Below, in pieces: positions 51,696 to 62,986 of a stretch of 64,000 bases of DNA. Where the stretch lies: NCBI GenBank assembly GCA_017459805.1, contig JAFUCE010000049.1:2464-66463 (forward strand), in the 5' to 3' direction. The stretch's first letter is position 1; every line of letters starts with the position of its first letter. Position numbers and translations under genes: made by a program. This stretch comes from Eggerthellaceae bacterium (GTDB lineage: Bacteria > Actinomycetota > Coriobacteriia > Coriobacteriales > Eggerthellaceae). The notes below the pieces were generated by a model. The model was not told the origin of the DNA, did not search any database, and worked only from the letters and a program-made list of their open reading frames with translations.

Positions 51696-51830
51696 GGTCC
51701 CAGGCCTTTCTCGCTCTAAAAATAGACCCCGTTATTCTAGCATTCAGTAACAAACACCTTTTGGCTGCTACACATCTGTTGCCATTTGGAAATGTAGGCG
51801 GTGCCCACCCATTCCAGCTTCAACCCACAT

Positions 51831-52068
51831 CCAAGCGCGACGCCCAACCACCAGCGCACCCACCACACCCAAGCGCCACACCCAACCACCAGCGCACCCA
51901 CCACACCCAAGCGCCCCTGCCTCCGGCCGCCCGCACCACCCAAGCGCCACGCCCAACCACCAACGCACCCACCAGACCCAAGCGCCACACCCAACCACCA
52001 GCGCACCCGCCACACCCAAGCACCCCTGCCTCCGCCCGCATGCGCTTGCCTCCGCCCACCCGCACCAC
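51831..52068. repeat. noncoding C-rich (T-free) 38-bp tandem repeat with a ~109-bp higher-order unit
   Basis: Unit A is ccaagcgc(c/g)ac(a/g)cccaaccacca(g/a)cgcaccc(a/g)cca(c/g)ac, at 51831-51868, 51869-51906, 51940-51977 and 51978-52015. Each A-A pair is followed by a related B unit (ccaagc(g)cccctgcctccg(g)cc(gc)... at 51907-51939 and 52016-52068). It lies in the 519-bp divergent intergenic region. Confidence 0.9.
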
Positions 52069-57015: not shown

Positions 57016-58167
57016 CTACCACGTGCTCGCGATCAAATAGGCTTTGGCATCGTGGGCTTCGCCGTTTCGCCAGCGGATTTTTACAAAGGTAGGGAAGCAG
57101 TACAGTCGCATGCTTTCACCCTGGAACGAAACGCACCTCGAAAACGCAGTTGCGGGAAGTAAGCGCCAGCGGTCGTCGGCAAGGCCCCAGGCTTCCAGCT
57201 GTTCCATAAGCTGCCCCGCGGCTCCGCTCGTCTTAAAGATTGCTTCTGGCTTATTATCGCCCGGCAAAAGGAAGCGTGCACTCAGCCCAAGGGTCGGCTC
57301 CGCCGTGCCATCTGGTGCAATATTAAATTGGAATTCAATACGGAACGGCAGCCGCGCAAAGCTTTGGCACCACGGAATAATAGTGGTGCCCGCGGTGCTT
57401 ATACCAAGCTGATTCAAATGCGCTTCAAGGAGCGCCGCATCTTGCGCGTAGGCCTGCTGCATTTCTTCAGTGGGGATGCATTCGACACGCAAGCCCATAT
57501 CCGCCCGAGACGGGAACACGCCCGCGTAACACGCAAACCAATCCTGTGGCTTACGTTCCATGAATGCGCGGTAGGCACCCACGGCGTCTGGCCTGCCCGC
57601 AGCTTGGAAAAAGCCGCCCATGGTGTCGTCGTTTCTGTGGTACAGCAAAAGCTGAACGGCAGGGTTGTCCACAAGACCCTTACTTATATCGTGGCTCAGG
57701 GCAAGCTGGCGCCCATCTGTTGCTTGCGTGGCAAACCATTCGAACACTTCGGGATAGAAGATCTGCGGCGCAGGCTCGACAGCTTCCGCCGTCCCCGTGC
57801 GCCGCGGCGCAGACTCGGCAGCTTCCGCCGTCCCCGTGCGCCGCGGGGCGGGCTCGGCAGCCCCCGATGTCCCAGCGCATTGCGGCGCAGGCTCGGCAGC
57901 CCCCGATGTCCCAGCGCATTGCGGTGCGCGCCCAGCAGCAGAAGCAGCCCCGTCCATAAGGCTTTCCCGACTCGTAAGCACATGCAAATCAAACCAGGGC
58001 TCACCTAAAAGAGGCAGCTCAAACCACACTTCGGGAAATGACGAACCGACGAAGCTGCGTTCAAATACGTCATCCGCACGGGATGCGCAATCGCCGAATA
58101 AAGCAGCTTCGCGCCCGTCCAGGGCAGCTTGCGCGTAAATCAAGTTATAAATGATGCCGTAATTCAA
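57016..58167 (-). CDS. hypothetical protein, paralog A of an unrecognised family (see 61623-62810)
   Basis: Shares N-terminal (FPEVWFELPLLGEPWFDLHVL vs FPSVYLEFPLLGDPFLDVTLL) and C-terminal (ADDRWRLL...FPTFVKIRWRNG...AKAY vs ADERWHLS...FPKWVKARWRAG...AKMY) blocks with paralog B. The start is an apparent TTG and is uncertain. Confidence 0.7.
   Translation of the reverse strand: MNYGIIYNLIYAQAALDGREAALFGDCASRADDVFERSFVGSSFPEVWFELPLLGEPWFDLHVLTSRESLMDGAASAAGRAPQCAGTSGAAEPAPQCAGTSGAAEPAPRRTGTAEAAESAPRRTGTAEAVEPAPQIFYPEVFEWFATQATDGRQLALSHDISKGLVDNPAVQLLLYHRNDDTMGGFFQAAGRPDAVGAYRAFMERKPQDWFACYAGVFPSRADMGLRVECIPTEEMQQAYAQDAALLEAHLNQLGISTAGTTIIPWCQSFARLPFRIEFQFNIAPDGTAEPTLGLSARFLLPGDNKPEAIFKTSGAAGQLMEQLEAWGLADDRWRLLPATAFSRCVSFQGESMRLYCFPTFVKIRWRNGEAHDAKAYLIASTW
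57767..57922 (-). repeat. 39-nt in-frame tandem repeats (2+2 copies) inside paralog A
   Basis: The units encode APQCAGTSGAAEP x2 and APRRTGTAEA(A/V)E(S/P) x2. Unit boundaries are at 57767, 57806, 57845 and 57884. Confidence 0.85.
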
Positions 58168-58529
58168 AGCGCTTCGCGTCTTTCATGTCATCGCTTGCTG
58201 CAACTCAACCGCAGCACTTTCATAAGCTTATACCCGATAGTATACGCCCGCCTTGCCTCTGTTCATTTTGGATGCAAGCTAAATTAGTTAAGGGCAAGCA
58301 CTGGGCAGACATTTCCCCCGTTCACGCTCCCGCTGGGCGCACCACATTCACATATGCGTTTTCTTCCTGCTATACAAGCTTCGCGTACTGCCTCTCAAGC
58401 TTCTTTTGGTCTATACTAGAGTCCAATTAATAGAAGGAAACAAAACGGTAAATTTATTCGTTTTTTGCTGGAAAAATAACCACGATAGCGTATAACCAAG
58501 GCGTACAGGCACGAGGAAGGAAAAATCAA

Positions 58530-58841
58530 GTGGATCTTAATCTTGATATTAAAACGGAGGGCACAAAAGCCACTATTGCCGCTGAAGGCAAACTGACGGT
58601 ACAAACATCCCCCGACCTTGAAGCGGCCATCAATGAGCTCGGCGAACAAATCTGCGACATCGACATCGACTTGAAGGAAGTCGACTACATCGCGTCCGCA
58701 GGTCTACGCGTGTTGGTCGCAACAGACAAGCTGGTCCTTTCTCGCGGAGGCACCATGCGGCTGCTCTACCCCAACGACGACGTCAATGAAGTATTTGACA
58801 TGACGGGTCTTTCCGACGTGTTCACCATTGAACGTTCGTAG
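58530..58841 (+). CDS. STAS-domain anti-sigma-factor antagonist (SpoIIAA/RsbV-like)
   Basis: GTG start preceded by GGAAGGA. 103 aa: ...GKLTVQTSPDLEAAINEL...IDLKEVDYIASAGLRVLV..., with a conserved Ser in the D-x-I-x-S-x-G-L context. Confidence 0.85.
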   Translation: MDLNLDIKTEGTKATIAAEGKLTVQTSPDLEAAINELGEQICDIDIDLKEVDYIASAGLRVLVATDKLVLSRGGTMRLLYPNDDVNEVFDMTGLSDVFTIERS

Positions 58842-58886
58842 CCAGTTTCACTTAGTTTAGGTAAAGAGCATCACAGGCTTTGTAAG

Positions 58887-61598
58887 ATGAACAAAGCAGA
58901 AAACATGTTTACATGGAAAGGTCTTATTTCCGACCTTGACCGTCGTACCCGCTTTATGGTGTACCTGGTGTTTACCTTTATGGTTGGCACCATCGTCTTT
59001 TGTCAGCTTGGTTTTCTGCCCTTGGGCGGCACGCGTTTATTTCTTGTGCTTGTGCCAATTGCCCTGACCAGTCTGCTTTTTGGCACCATCGGAGGCACTG
59101 TCCTTGGGGCCATCGGCGGCAGCGCCATGATGCTGCACGCGATTCTTCTCCCCTTCGACTACTACGAAAAATACTTTGCTTCACCCATTAACTCTATTGT
59201 CTTGTTTGCCCTCAGCGGTTTCGTGCTGGGGCTTTTGTTTTATTGGGTTACCCGCATTGGGGAAAAGAACCACAATGCTGGTTTTGCTGCCCTTATTGCC
59301 GCCTGCTTTGTTGGGTCATGGTTTGCGTCAACCTTCTTTCAAGTTAACTCGTATCTTATTGCGGCAGTATTAAACTTAAACATTCCAAAAGAACTGTTTG
59401 ACGTTGTTTCGGGCCTGCGTTCTATTGCGATTCAACTGGTGCTAGACGCCCTCATTATGGTTTTGTTTACCGTTATCGCGGCCCTTATTAACCTCAACCG
59501 CACAAACAAGCCCAAGTATGAACGCCCCTTGCGCGACACCTTCATGGGCTGGCTTATTGTGGTAGTGACTCTGGCGTTTATGGCAACCGCTGCCTTTTCC
59601 TATACCTTTATTACGGGGGCGCTTATCGCGCGTGCGAACACGACCCTGGACAACCACATTAGCTACGTAAAAGACCAACTAACTGAGCGCGATGCGTGGA
59701 TCAACCAGATCCAAGCGCGCGGCGGTCTGAGTGCTGACGACCGTGAAAAAATGATATCCCAGTCCATTGAAGGCATCGCCCACGGTCTGCAGCTAGGCCA
59801 AAATGGCGTCACTATCGTGGCGGAAAATGGCGTGATTGCTTCATCGAACGAAACTGGTATCGTTGGCCAAAGCTTTGAAGACGTGGTAGGTGCGGGCATA
59901 AGCGGCGGATTTAGCGAAAGCGTTTATAACACCGCTCGGCCTTTGGAATACTACTACGGCGGCATCGTTAGTGCGAGCTTGGAAGACGGTTCTGGCGACG
60001 GTAGCGGCGGCGGTGACGAAGGTGACAGCGGCAGCGCGAGCAGCAATGCAAGCGCCATTGCCAACGCCGCAGAAATCAGCTACCTCAAGGCATCGGAGAT
60101 TAGCTACATGCGTGCTCAGCAAGTGGGCAAGTATCAGGTTGCAGCCATTATGCCCGGAACCGACGTGTTCGAATACCGGACGCTTGCCCTAGCACTCATG
60201 ACGCTTGTCTTCTTGATTCAGTTCGTTCTCGTGTTTCTTTTGGCCATGCGCTTGCTCGACCAAGTTGTCGTGCGTCGCATCGACCAAACAAACGAAACGC
60301 TTGAACGCATTACCGAAGGCGACCTTGACCAAATGGTCGAAGTGAAAGACAGCATTGAATTTGCTTCCCTTTCAGCGGGCATCAATTCAACGGTGGGTGC
60401 CCTGAAGGATTCCATTGCCGAAGCCGAAGCGCGCATCGACCGCGAGCTGACAACGGCGCAGGCCATTCAAAAAAGCGCCCTGCCGCAGGTTTTCCCACCC
60501 TTCCCAGAAATTGAAAAGTTCGACATTTTTGCCAGCATGGAACCTGCGCGCGAAGTTGGCGGCGACTTCTACGACTTCTTCCTCCTTGACAACGACCGCC
60601 TCGGCCTCGTTATTGCCGACGTAAGCGGCAAAGGCATTCCCGCGGCATTGTTTATGATGGGCGCAAAAACCGAAATTGAGGCATGCCTTTCATCGAACAT
60701 GAGCTTGGTTGACGCCATTTCCACAGCCAACTATCACCTCTGCCAAGGCAATGATGCAAACATGTTTGTTACGGTGTTTGCTGCTGTGCTCAACTATTCA
60801 AATGGCGAACTGGAATACGTAAACGCTGGCCATAACCCACCCATGCTGCGTCGCGCGGGTACATGGGAATGGCTGAACGAAAAATCAGGGCCATTCATGG
60901 GTGCCTTCGAGACGGCTAAGTATCGTTCATACAGCACGACGATTGCCGAAGGCGACGAGATTCTTTTGTATACCGACGGCGTGACGGAAGCCATGAATCC
61001 ACAAGAAGAATTATATGGCGAAGAACGTCTGGGGGCTTTCCTGGCAGAGCACACTACGCTGCATCCGCGCAAGTTGCTCGAAGCGGTGCGCCGCGACTTA
61101 TATCGCTGGGCAAACGGCGCAGACCAGGCCGACGACATTACCATGCTGTGTGTTGAATATGGTTATGCGCCCGAAGCTTCGGCATCTATTATTTTGCCTG
61201 CCCGCATCGACCAACTCGAGGCAGCGCAGCGCTTTGTCCACAGTGAACTTTCACGGCGCAAATGCCCCATTGCAGTACAAAACAAGATTGACATCTGCAT
61301 TGAAGAACTGTTCGTAAACGTAGCAAGCTATGCCTACCCCGACGCCACCGACGACACCCCGGGGCGCGTGCGCATATCCTACATTTATCATGGCGACCCA
61401 CAGGGAATTACGATTGAGATTTCAGACGAAGGCACGCCCTTCAACCCGCTTGCCAAAGCGGACCCGCAGGCACCCGATAGTATTGCGGAAGCAAAAATTG
61501 GTGGGTTGGGCATCTTTATGACCAAGACCATCGCCGACGATATTACGTATAACTATCACGATAATTGCAACGTTACTTCTTTCACAAAAAACTGGTAG
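58887..61598 (+). CDS. membrane sensor protein fusing polytopic TM region, extracytoplasmic loop domain, HAMP, PP2C/SpoIIE-type phosphatase and a C-terminal RsbW/SpoIIAB-like HATPase (anti-sigma kinase) domain
   Basis: About 8 N-terminal TM helices, a ~200-aa loop, another TM helix and a HAMP-like segment (VVRRIDQTNETLERITEGDLDQMVEV). PP2C motifs GGDFYDFF and LVIADVSGKGIPAALFM. C-terminal N-box EELFVNVASYAY, G1 DEGTPFNP and G2 GGLGIFM. Confidence 0.85.
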   Translation: MNKAENMFTWKGLISDLDRRTRFMVYLVFTFMVGTIVFCQLGFLPLGGTRLFLVLVPIALTSLLFGTIGGTVLGAIGGSAMMLHAILLPFDYYEKYFASPINSIVLFALSGFVLGLLFYWVTRIGEKNHNAGFAALIAACFVGSWFASTFFQVNSYLIAAVLNLNIPKELFDVVSGLRSIAIQLVLDALIMVLFTVIAALINLNRTNKPKYERPLRDTFMGWLIVVVTLAFMATAAFSYTFITGALIARANTTLDNHISYVKDQLTERDAWINQIQARGGLSADDREKMISQSIEGIAHGLQLGQNGVTIVAENGVIASSNETGIVGQSFEDVVGAGISGGFSESVYNTARPLEYYYGGIVSASLEDGSGDGSGGGDEGDSGSASSNASAIANAAEISYLKASEISYMRAQQVGKYQVAAIMPGTDVFEYRTLALALMTLVFLIQFVLVFLLAMRLLDQVVVRRIDQTNETLERITEGDLDQMVEVKDSIEFASLSAGINSTVGALKDSIAEAEARIDRELTTAQAIQKSALPQVFPPFPEIEKFDIFASMEPAREVGGDFYDFFLLDNDRLGLVIADVSGKGIPAALFMMGAKTEIEACLSSNMSLVDAISTANYHLCQGNDANMFVTVFAAVLNYSNGELEYVNAGHNPPMLRRAGTWEWLNEKSGPFMGAFETAKYRSYSTTIAEGDEILLYTDGVTEAMNPQEELYGEERLGAFLAEHTTLHPRKLLEAVRRDLYRWANGADQADDITMLCVEYGYAPEASASIILPARIDQLEAAQRFVHSELSRRKCPIAVQNKIDICIEELFVNVASYAYPDATDDTPGRVRISYIYHGDPQGITIEISDEGTPFNPLAKADPQAPDSIAEAKIGGLGIFMTKTIADDITYNYHDNCNVTSFTKNW

Positions 61599-61622
61599 AA
61601 GAATAGCGAGAGAGGCGCATAC

Positions 61623-62810
61623 ATGAAGGCCCCTTCGCATGAAGATGCGTTTCAAGCTTTACTACTGCAAGCAGCTGGCGAGGGCCGCGGCGAAGTCCTG
61701 TTTGCAGATAGTCTCGAGCGCGTTCAGCAACAGGTTCCACCCTTCCTGGTGGGCGACAAATTTCCTTCCGTGTACCTGGAGTTTCCGCTTTTGGGCGACC
61801 CGTTTCTGGACGTAACTTTACTTTATAGCGAGCTTGCACCTGGTGTGCGTATTGAACACCCTGCTGCAGCGGGATCAGAAGGTATGATGGACTGGTTTGC
61901 GGGCCTGGATAATCACAAAAACTCGGGCGCAAACCCCGGCCCAGCCCCTAACACCAATTCGGGCGCAAACCCCGGCTCATCCCCAAATACCAACTCAGCC
62001 CCTAACCCCAGCCAGGGCAGCAAGAACAACGTAAGCACGAACAACAAAAATGGAGCGAGCGCTTCCGCACTAAGCGGCAACAGAAAAGATCTTGATATTT
62101 GCTGCGGCTTCGAACTGGATACCAAAAACCCTGAACTACCTGCAGCCGCCGTACATTTTCAGCCACGCGCTCACACCGAACTGGTGCGCCCCTTCTGCGA
62201 AGCCGTAGGCGAGCCAGACCGCGCCAAGCTGTATTTAGATATGGCTGCGCGCATGCCAGAAGGCTGGCCGCTTTCGTTTTTCGGCATGTTTCGCGGGCGC
62301 CATGGTTCACCCCTGCGCGTGTGCGGCTACATGGGTGCCGACGAAAAAGCTTTGTGCGCACAGGACCCACAGCGTCTGATGGGCGTGTTCGATAGCCTTG
62401 GCTTTACTGCCTACGATGACACTATGGTGCAAGAGACGTGTACACTCCTAGGCCTTGCTGGCAATGCGGCTGATTTCCAGTTTGACGTATACCCCGATGG
62501 CAGCTTGGGCGACACTTTTGCCCTCGATAATTCATTTGATATTGAAAGACCTGAAAACGTACAAGATAGCTTTGCGAACGGGCCAGCATCACGGGTCATG
62601 CAATTCTTCCAGGAACGCGGCGTGGCCGATGAGCGTTGGCATCTTTCGTCCGACATGACCTTTGCGCGTGCCATTCCTGTGAGCAACGAAGATGGCTCAA
62701 AGAGCAAATATGCTTTCGTTGTATTCCCCAAGTGGGTAAAAGCCCGGTGGCGTGCAGGCGTGCTGCAGCCAGCAAAAATGTACACCTACGTCCACGCCTG
62801 CTTCCTTTAG
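61623..62810 (+). CDS. hypothetical protein, paralog B of the family at 57016-58167
   Basis: RBS GAGAGAGG. It shares conserved blocks with paralog A (see that entry). It has an Asn/Pro/Gly/Ser-rich insert at the equivalent position. Confidence 0.75.
   Translation: MKAPSHEDAFQALLLQAAGEGRGEVLFADSLERVQQQVPPFLVGDKFPSVYLEFPLLGDPFLDVTLLYSELAPGVRIEHPAAAGSEGMMDWFAGLDNHKNSGANPGPAPNTNSGANPGSSPNTNSAPNPSQGSKNNVSTNNKNGASASALSGNRKDLDICCGFELDTKNPELPAAAVHFQPRAHTELVRPFCEAVGEPDRAKLYLDMAARMPEGWPLSFFGMFRGRHGSPLRVCGYMGADEKALCAQDPQRLMGVFDSLGFTAYDDTMVQETCTLLGLAGNAADFQFDVYPDGSLGDTFALDNSFDIERPENVQDSFANGPASRVMQFFQERGVADERWHLSSDMTFARAIPVSNEDGSKSKYAFVVFPKWVKARWRAGVLQPAKMYTYVHACFL
61920..62009 (+). repeat. 36-nt in-frame tandem repeat (2.5 copies) inside paralog B
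   Basis: aa(c/t)tcgggcgcaaaccccggc... units at 61920, 61956 and a partial one at 61992. They encode NSGANPG(P/S)(A/S)PNT. Confidence 0.85.
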
Positions 62811-62942: not shown

Positions 62943-62986
62943 AGCCTGCTGGAGTCCTTCCTAACTCCAGCAGGCTAGCTTTTTAA
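62943..62986 (+). terminator. rho-independent terminator downstream of paralog B
   Basis: AGCCTGCTGGAG-N10-CTCCAGCAGGCT is a 12-bp stem followed by AGCTTTTTA. Confidence 0.7.

Follow-up and report, generated by a model that had tools for sequence, protein, structure and literature searches.

Partner-switching modules in which phosphatase and kinase share one polypeptide are represented by HsbR-HsbA of Pseudomonas and CrsR-CrsA of Shewanella, where a PP2C phosphatase fused to a kinase/anti-sigma domain has a STAS partner, and RpoS is encoded elsewhere (PMC6482189). On the side of peptide chemistry, MppC attaches a geranyl group to a tryptophan in the core of a Nif11-leader precursor, and this reaction depends on the leader (PMC12715784). 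The present analysis concerns a 64-kb stretch of DNA from an Eggerthellaceae bacterium (contig JAFUCE010000049.1), hereafter the window, in which the genes of a STAS antagonist (58530-58841) and of a membrane sensor (58887-61598) are bracketed by those of two paralogous proteins, designated PT-A (57016-58167) and PT-B (61623-62810). All four open reading frames (ORFs) were found exactly where an earlier interpretation of the same letters, the sequence-only reading, had placed them. We do not favour its proposal of a sigma-less switch with the paralogs as its direct targets. We hold instead, with moderate confidence, that PT-A and PT-B are predicted peptide (tryptophan) prenyltransferases of a pathway for peptides made by the ribosome and modified after translation (RiPPs) with Nif11 leaders, and that an HsbR/CrsR-like membrane partner switch acts as the regulator of this pathway.

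The two flanking proteins are true paralogs, as had been claimed, with 27% identity over the full length (BLASTP, E=3e-29). The accompanying claim that their family is unrecognised stood at the level of sequence databases and gave way at the level of the fold, where ABBA prenyltransferases were matched. Neither protein gave a match in Pfam, NCBIfam (none at E<=1), PADLOC or the PDB sequences (phmmer); ten divergent family members likewise had no Pfam or NCBIfam match at E<=1, and a profile of 58 family sequences found no prenyltransferase among the PDB sequences. Weak sequence matches to ataxin-3 (E=0.03), TM1112 (E~1) and TarM (E=0.02) were set aside, each being marginal, confined to one short stretch and without fold support, and a defence-system reading was dropped upon the negative PADLOC search.

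The AlphaFold2 models of the paralogs, built on 41-sequence alignments, reached a predicted local distance difference test (pLDDT) score of 85.8 and a predicted template-modelling (pTM) score of 0.82 for PT-A, and 87.4 and 0.83, respectively, for PT-B. Outside the inserts described below, pLDDT was ~95-98 in both models, which consist of five beta-hairpins separated by helix pairs. When the models were compared with the PDB by Foldseek, all of the best 50 matches listed for each were ABBA/PT-barrel aromatic prenyltransferases, with a probability of 1.00 at the top ranks. The best match of PT-B was 5-DMATS of S. coelicolor (6zs0, E=1.3e-6), accompanied by PriB, DMATS1, IptA, AmbP3, FamD1, CloQ, CymD, MpnD and AtaPT, and that of PT-A was NphB/Orf2 (1zb6, E=4e-5), accompanied by DMATS1, PriB, EpzP and AmbP1/P3. 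From this confident fold-level match, PT-A and PT-B are predicted to have the PT-barrel (ABBA) fold, and the earlier hunch that their strand-like motifs recall barrel-type enzymes agrees with both models.

Nineteen residues are invariant across the A- and B-type subfamilies of the family, and PT-A and PT-B of the window keep all of them; the set includes E53, D63, W91, R226, R232, Q286, D336, R338, K373, R375, W376, K385 and Y387 (B numbering). Many invariant residues are charged or aromatic and are located on or beside predicted barrel strands (E53, R226, R232, Q286, K373, R375, K385 and Y387), which would look like the pattern expected of a lumenal active site. A further argument, that alternating conservation along the strands marks residues lining the lumen, was dropped, as the even/odd difference was not discriminating (0.144 on strands vs 0.118 on helices).

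PT-A and PT-B share with the ABBA prenyltransferases (SCO7467, IptA, PriB and CymD; NphB/Orf2, CloQ and EpzP; the cyanobactin enzymes KgpF and PagF) the same predicted fold, in which five alpha-alpha-beta-beta repeats form an antiparallel beta-barrel, a similar size (~330-340 amino acids without inserts) and conserved Arg/Lys/Tyr/Glu residues on the barrel strands. However, the family found here has no detectable sequence homology to them, occurs as an A/B paralog pair, and its catalysis is predicted. Its hosts are strictly anaerobic gut Coriobacteriia and some Lachnospiraceae, whereas ABBA enzymes come from Streptomyces, fungi and cyanobacteria.

An exhaustive profile search of 1.84 billion representative proteins (E<=1e-3) returned 429 clusters at 50% identity, uniform in length. 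The many relatives of the two paralogs fall into an A-type (~330 amino acids) and a B-type (~340 amino acids) subfamily, carry no annotation beyond 'hypothetical protein' and come from metagenome-assembled genomes (MAGs) of Eggerthellaceae, Atopobiaceae and Coriobacteriaceae; the family is small, compact and unnamed in every database queried. Scanning one genome per species yielded 62 related loci (numbered here with the prefix L), mostly from ruminant-gut Coriobacteriia MAGs. Also among the sources are two isolates, Olsenella intestinalis KCTC 25379 and Lachnospiraceae bacterium AC2029, and a MAG of Denitrobacterium detoxificans. Their neighbours were recorded by Pfam annotation of the two flanking genes on each side and by grouping every gene within +/-10 kb according to similarity. 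In about 20 of the 62 loci, an A-type gene adjoins the anchor B-type gene; mostly it lies directly upstream in the same orientation, and the two genes overlap. This direct tandem indicates that the split and inverted layout of the window is derived.

This census revealed that the normal home of the family is a Nif11-leader RiPP cluster. NHLP-type peptidase-ABC (ATP-binding cassette) exporters, usually paired, were found in 16-19 of the 62 loci (TIGR03796 at 923 bits vs a cutoff of 853; TIGR03797 at 652 bits, under its cutoff of 709), a RiPP maturase of the radical S-adenosylmethionine (radical-SAM)/SPASM type in 12, and a short HlyD-like protein, similar to the N-terminal part of the HlyD of NHLP systems, in 11. 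Extracytoplasmic function (ECF) sigma factors and EAL proteins occur in six loci each, GGDEF proteins in four, and an isopentenyl diphosphate (IPP) isomerase (IDI; 153 bits vs a cutoff of 127) also in four. The gene order in L032 is ECF sigma factor, HlyD-like protein, two ABC exporters, PT-A and PT-B, while L060 presents a divergent radical-SAM gene followed by HlyD-like protein, two ABC exporters, PT-A and PT-B. In L053, IDI, DUF7005, precursor and PT genes follow each other on one strand. Since IDI makes dimethylallyl diphosphate (DMAPP), its position beside a PT-fold protein and a tryptophan-bearing precursor lends independent support to prenyl-transfer chemistry.

DUF7005, found in eight of the 62 loci and typically abutting the PT gene, is likely an additional enzyme of the pathway. 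Genes of this domain (PF22541) directly upstream of PT, either abutting it or with the precursor between, were observed at L024 9069-9953, L028 3147-4031, L025 4539-5516 and L053 8691-9584.

Clustering of small intergenic ORFs disclosed a conserved peptide in at least 14 related loci, which carries a Nif11-like leader (...KTPEELLALAKEEGYELSDEELEAVSGG) that ends in a double-glycine cleavage motif. Two of the five precursors tested exceeded the TIGR03798 cutoff of 32.3, with 35-37 bits. Tryptophan is present in 17 of 19 precursor cores, with the first one placed no more than five residues past the Gly-Gly site in 15 of 19, and it is usually followed by a cysteine, as in WSC, WC, SWSC and WDC. 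The conserved tryptophan near the cleavage site is a directly testable substrate hypothesis. A second conserved small ORF was observed beside ECF sigma factor and exporter genes (L015 6399-6599, L016 3599-3844, L019 8816-9076 and L041 3773-3973), with the pattern ...F(R/K)E.LL.RCL.VL...DDEL..LAAAG and, after it, a short tail of acidic character. Its product could be either another type of precursor, cleaved at an Ala-Gly site, or a small protein of anti-sigma-like nature.

These clusters resemble the MppC/MppE lanthipeptide system, in which a prenyltransferase also belongs to a RiPP cluster and the precursor combines a Nif11-like leader with a core tryptophan (PMC12715784). They differ from it in that the maturase is a radical-SAM/SPASM enzyme and not a lanthionine synthetase, in the presence of two PT paralogs, and in export by an NHLP-type ABC pair; the likeness of the PT family to MppC is drawn from cluster content, and the chemistry of the family is a prediction. 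The A-B pair, together with radical-SAM, exporter and precursor genes, was also observed in rumen Lachnospiraceae of the Firmicutes (L065, which is strain AC2029, L070 and L064), which implies that the cluster as a whole has passed between phyla sharing a habitat.

The STAS protein was matched by PF01740 (E=2e-14) and by TIGR00377 (74.5 bits vs a cutoff of 53.45). Its candidate phospho-acceptor, read from the sequence, is Ser56 within a D-Y-I-A-S-A-G-L motif, which we take to be the position phosphorylated in RsbV and SpoIIAA. The 903-amino acid sensor presents, according to Pfam, a HAMP domain (residues 461-507), a SpoIIE/PP2C domain (569-757; PF07228, 174 bits, E=3.6e-51) and, in the same polypeptide, an RsbW-like serine kinase/anti-sigma domain of the HATPase_c_2 type (770-901; PF13581, 83.5 bits, E=1.6e-23), whose kinase boxes N (E806..N811), G1 (D847xGxxF) and G2 (G872GLG) are intact. 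Hydropathy placed about eight transmembrane segments in its N-terminus and an extracytoplasmic loop of ~190 residues (~243-432) ahead of HAMP. No Response_reg domain was matched in the sensor by Pfam, and the input consists of the transmembrane region, the loop and HAMP. The NCBIfam equivalogs scored far under their cutoffs (RsbW 29 bits vs 145; SpoIIAA 36 bits vs 115). Judged by these domains and boxes, the STAS protein and the sensor are a genuine partner-switching pair, and the wording 'complete core' used for them in the sequence-only reading is fair.

In common with HsbR and CrsR, PP2C and a GHKL serine-kinase/anti-sigma domain are joined here in one protein, which is paired with a single-domain STAS antagonist. 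However, the input of HsbR and CrsR is a receiver domain fed by a phosphorelay, in contrast to the eight-segment membrane region, extracytoplasmic loop and HAMP domain found here; moreover, the present host is an anaerobe of the Actinobacteria, the sigma factor that L054 suggests as a candidate is of the ECF type, and the module lies among secondary-metabolite genes. The RsbU/RsbV/RsbW and SpoIIE/SpoIIAA/SpoIIAB systems of Bacillus likewise comprise a PP2C phosphatase, a STAS protein with a conserved serine and an RsbW/SpoIIAB-like kinase, but in the window a single membrane protein combines phosphatase and kinase, and no sigB- or sigF-like gene is adjacent. The earlier statement that no sigma factor is encoded nearby agreed with all scans: none appeared in the Pfam listing of +/-10 kb on a sister contig, a profile derived from ECF sigma factors gave nothing significant over all window ORFs, and ten sigma-sized window ORFs had no match. 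A weak match to the ECF profile (320-475, E=0.03) in a 553-amino acid protein was rejected, as the sole Pfam match of this protein is a GATase_7 amidotransferase domain. Since the HsbR and CrsR systems control RpoS, which is not encoded at their locus, the lack of a local sigma gene is nothing out of the ordinary for systems of this kind.

In the proposed mechanism, for which we infer prenyl-transfer catalysis, tryptophan as the acceptor, which sigma factor takes part and in which direction the switch works, PT-A and PT-B would prenylate the precursor core, most likely at a tryptophan 1-5 residues past the Gly-Gly site, with DMAPP or a longer prenyl diphosphate as the donor. The kinase domain of the sensor would phosphorylate Ser56 of the STAS protein and keep a sigma factor bound. 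Once HAMP relays a signal of extracytoplasmic or membrane origin, the PP2C domain would dephosphorylate the STAS protein, which would bind the kinase domain, free the sigma factor and turn on the peptide-modification genes. The sigma factor would be encoded elsewhere in this genome, an ECF sigma factor being found beside the STAS gene in L054. The simplest reading is therefore that of a transcriptional regulator of peptide-modification genes working via a remotely encoded sigma factor. Because the family normally sits in clusters for modified and exported peptides, the STAS-sensor pair is more likely a regulator of the pathway than a direct switch on PT-A and PT-B.

Switch components (small STAS proteins, homologs of the PP2C-kinase sensor, or STAS-APH fusions) were detected in the available flanks of 10 of the 62 loci; the hosts of these 10 are Atopobiaceae, Eggerthellaceae, Coriobacteriaceae and Olsenella. 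Considering the 29 loci of at least 15 kb, a switch was present in eight and absent from 21. RiPP hallmarks accompany eight of the 10 switch loci and 21 of the 52 others (Fisher P=0.024), and with the window counted, the switch lies no more than 2.5 kb from the PT genes in seven of 11 cases (binomial P=0.008 vs a uniform spread over +/-10 kb). The association with STAS/PP2C genes supposed in the sequence-only reading is therefore real, recurrent and tight. Nevertheless, only a minority of the clusters have it, as an accessory, and it is not a property of the PT family, whose main partners are RiPP genes.

The closest ortholog of the sensor is encoded at L054 12661-15264 (E=1e-98 for the N-terminal domain and also for PP2C), and STAS orthologs occur in L054, L060 and L025. 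In L054, the closest orthologous locus, PT-A, PT-B, a 153-amino acid gene, the ECF sigma factor, STAS, the sensor, a RelA/SpoT-HD-like gene and a STAS-APH fusion follow each other on one strand, with the ECF gene directly upstream of STAS and a Nif11 precursor ~3 kb upstream of PT-A. STAS-APH fusions, in which an N-terminal STAS domain precedes an APH/CotS-like phosphotransferase domain of kinase fold, recur close to the PT family, at L054 15710-17035, L056 4943-6124 and L025 12092-13276; we know of no described role for such a STAS-kinase fusion. Another observation came from L033 5705-7021, which encodes a 438-amino acid homolog of the N-terminal membrane domain of the sensor alone (E=7e-21), without PP2C or kinase, and is placed between the exporter genes and the PT gene inside a RiPP cluster. 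This homolog gives a hint of a tie between the sensor's membrane domain itself and the peptide, via sensing or immunity.

The link between RiPP chemistry and the lineage of the window comes from a sister contig, L001, which differs from the window by 186 mismatches over the 12,378 nt they have in common (98.5% identical) and runs 6.3 kb further. At L001 17958-18135, ~6.8 kb downstream of PT-B and thus outside the window, a family-type precursor was detected (profile E=5e-18), directly after genes for a helix-turn-helix (HTH)-receiver regulator and a PF06580 histidine kinase, so that the RiPP link extends to the window lineage. Its translation runs MDYSNLDPEL, a stop, EKVKACKTPEDVMKLAADEGYELSDAELSSISGG and, after ...SGG, the core TWSWCGDFYEPHN. 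The response regulator encoded at L001 15695-16546 was observed to carry a long (S/T)P(D/S)-rich repeat tail.

Several observations weigh against the reading of PT-A and PT-B as prenyltransferases of a RiPP pathway under the control of the partner switch. Homolog seeds detected no exporter, radical-SAM enzyme, IDI, DUF7005, ECF sigma factor or precursor in the 64-kb window (for the Nif11-leader precursor, the best match had E=0.3), and the HlyD-like, EAL and GGDEF seeds had no homolog there either. The L001 precursor is interrupted at codon 11 by an in-frame TAA stop and is located at the contig end beside a transposase-like fragment, and because of these two features the pathway of this lineage may be broken up, in decay or rewired; the precursor may be a pseudogene, or a restart at Met24 may yield a short leader. 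Despite this stop, PT-A and PT-B of the window retain every family-invariant residue. Half of the family loci (31 of 62) are without RiPP or switch genes, and many of these are short contigs. The classical partners of RsbW-type kinases are sigma factors of group 3 and not of the ECF type, so the ECF link rests on adjacency in one locus and on presence in the same clusters elsewhere. No sequence-level link to any prenyltransferase family, Trp_DMAT and PTase_Orf2 included, was found with Pfam, NCBIfam or the PDB profile search. The template-modelling (TM) scores of the Foldseek matches are modest (0.45-0.56), with large root-mean-square deviations and identities of 7-14%, for which reason the claim made here is one of membership of a fold and not of a sequence family, and diphosphate binding by PT-A and PT-B is a prediction only.

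These last points also bear on whether one or both paralogs might have the PT-barrel without prenyl transfer, serving as a non-catalytic peptide- or lipid-binding scaffold, as an immunity protein or in other chemistry. The similarity at fold level only (TM ~0.5), the lack of a match to any Pfam prenyltransferase family, the several acidic residues and the tryptophan without an assignable role within the invariant set, and the uninformative even/odd conservation of strands are all compatible with such a role. It is nevertheless considered unlikely, since the best 50 structural matches listed for both models were prenyltransferases without exception, the DMAPP-supplying isomerase is adjacent in four loci, including the run in L053, and both paralogs keep the same invariant Arg/Lys/Tyr/Glu set. 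A similarly low probability is assigned to the sigma-less switch of the sequence-only reading, in which the STAS protein in one phospho-state, or the kinase domain, would bind PT-A and/or PT-B and control their activity after translation, by analogy with the action of HsbA on the diguanylate cyclase HsbD and of SypA on polysaccharide synthesis. Outputs other than sigma factors have been described for STAS proteins (PMC6482189; PMC10120452), the window has no sigma factor, PT-B starts 24 nt past the sensor, and tight PT/switch spacing recurs in varied layouts, with ~100 nt between B and sensor in L062, 156 nt between B and STAS in L025, and ~180 nt between the sensor-N homolog and PT in L033. 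However, a regulator travelling with its regulon explains the co-transcription equally well, and the three findings that the sequence-only reading had named as telling against the idea were present in some form: the family usually occurs apart from STAS/PP2C genes, with no switch gene in the available DNA of 52 of the 62 loci (and in 21 of the 29 longer ones) and RiPP genes as its dominant partners; a characterised family, the ABBA superfamily, is matched confidently at fold level; and a related locus, L054, has an ECF sigma gene immediately upstream of STAS.

The neighbourhood could also be a coincidence, in which the switch serves an unrelated general or envelope stress response and landed between the PT genes when a rearrangement divided the ancestral A-B tandem and inverted part of it. 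The direct tandem with nothing between in ~20 related loci, which makes the window layout derived, is in keeping with this, as are the plasticity of the region, evident in its tandem-repeat expansions and in the transposase-like fragment at the end of L001, and the very variable neighbourhoods of the family. Against it stand the recurrence of switch genes in 10 loci across four taxa (Atopobiaceae, Eggerthellaceae, Coriobacteriaceae and Olsenella), their closeness to the PT genes (P=0.008) and co-occurrence with RiPP hallmarks (P=0.024), and the apparent placement of PT-B in one operon with the sensor, and this explanation is rated as even less probable than the two preceding ones. The most speculative extension of the regulatory proposal, which we would put at a low probability, is that the prenylated and exported peptide is itself the signal: the sensor, with its eight transmembrane segments and HAMP domain, would detect the peptide or the membrane state that it brings about, and autoinduction would proceed via the partner switch, not a two-component system. 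Such a scheme would amount to a ComX-like lipidated-pheromone circuit of anaerobic gut Actinobacteria working via STAS, PP2C and an anti-sigma kinase, and in a variant of it the STAS protein would also gate PT-A and PT-B directly.

If the RiPP-prenyltransferase interpretation is true, the PT family would add a new sequence family to the ABBA prenyltransferases, and its clusters would encode Nif11 peptides that are prenylated and radical-SAM-modified, a class that is a candidate for being new, in rumen and gut Coriobacteriia and Lachnospiraceae. Partner switching, and possibly ECF sigma factors, would thereby be linked to the control of a peptide natural-product pathway, and a membrane-sensor version of the HsbR/CrsR architecture would be added in the Actinobacteria. 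For annotation, two 'hypothetical proteins' would become predicted enzymes with a named fold. To our knowledge, no RiPP lipidation has been characterised from Coriobacteriia or Lachnospiraceae. Literature searches returned nothing relevant on ABBA prenyltransferases combined with partner switching, on prenyltransferases in Coriobacteriia or the rumen, on DUF7005, or on prenylated SPASM RiPPs in the gut. Three features appear to be new, none having been found in the literature: an unnamed family of ABBA fold, orphan in sequence, in anaerobic gut bacteria; its pairing with radical-SAM/SPASM maturases and with Nif11 precursors that have a tryptophan near the cleavage site; and the occasional coupling of this PT family to partner switching.

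Concerning the layout of the locus, PT-A (383 amino acids, TTG start) is on the minus strand and is transcribed divergently from STAS (103 amino acids, GTG start), the sensor and PT-B (395 amino acids), which are all on the plus strand. A Shine-Dalgarno sequence, GGAAGGA, lies ahead of the GTG start of STAS, and PT-B, which begins 24 nt past the stop codon of the sensor, is preceded by the Shine-Dalgarno sequence GAGAGAGG. A hairpin resembling a bidirectional intrinsic terminator is located 3' of PT-B (62943-62976), with a stem of 13-14 bp followed by a T-run. In the terminator scan, the number of matches equalled the shuffle expectation, and only this long hairpin was counted as evidence; the sole terminator-like match within the STAS-sensor stretch (59210-59231) falls inside the sensor coding sequence. 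Given the 24-nt gap, the Shine-Dalgarno sequence, the lack of a terminator between the genes and the strong hairpin after PT-B, the STAS, sensor and PT-B genes very likely form one transcription unit closed by the hairpin. The 362-bp spacer between PT-A and STAS (58168-58529) presumably holds the promoters of both transcription units at positions that we infer, and the promoter scan detected no sigma-70 consensus promoter within it.

The restriction-modification genes of an Atopobiaceae MAG provided another observation on switch-bearing neighbourhoods. In L004/L012, a type II pair comprising an Eco57I-like methylase and a BsuBI/PstI endonuclease (L004 11004-13384) is inserted between the STAS-sensor pair and a PucR-like regulator adjoining PT-B, and the locus is flanked by a gene for a 3046-amino acid non-ribosomal peptide synthetase (NRPS) and by thiolase and acyl carrier protein (ACP) genes. 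A link of the family to such polyketide/NRPS-like genes was considered and rejected, as this context did not recur.

The extra length of the window copies of PT-A and PT-B results from in-frame tandem DNA repeats. The PT-A insert is Ala/Pro/Gly-rich and disordered (residues ~75-127, pLDDT <50) and is absent from the ~330-amino acid orthologs; Tandem Repeats Finder (TRF) detected an in-frame repeat in PT-A at 57763-57924, with ~4.2 copies of 39 nt. The insert of PT-B, equally disordered (residues 100-153, pLDDT <50), is Asn/Ser/Pro-rich and unique to the window copy in the alignment, and part of it is encoded by ~2.3 copies of a 36-nt repeat (61923-62013). Both inserts share the same loop of the fold, and they are independent of each other. 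In-frame expansion of tandem repeats recurs in this genome, and a further tandem array of 38/109-nt units, rich in C and A, was observed in the window at 51825-52039, upstream of a purH-like gene.

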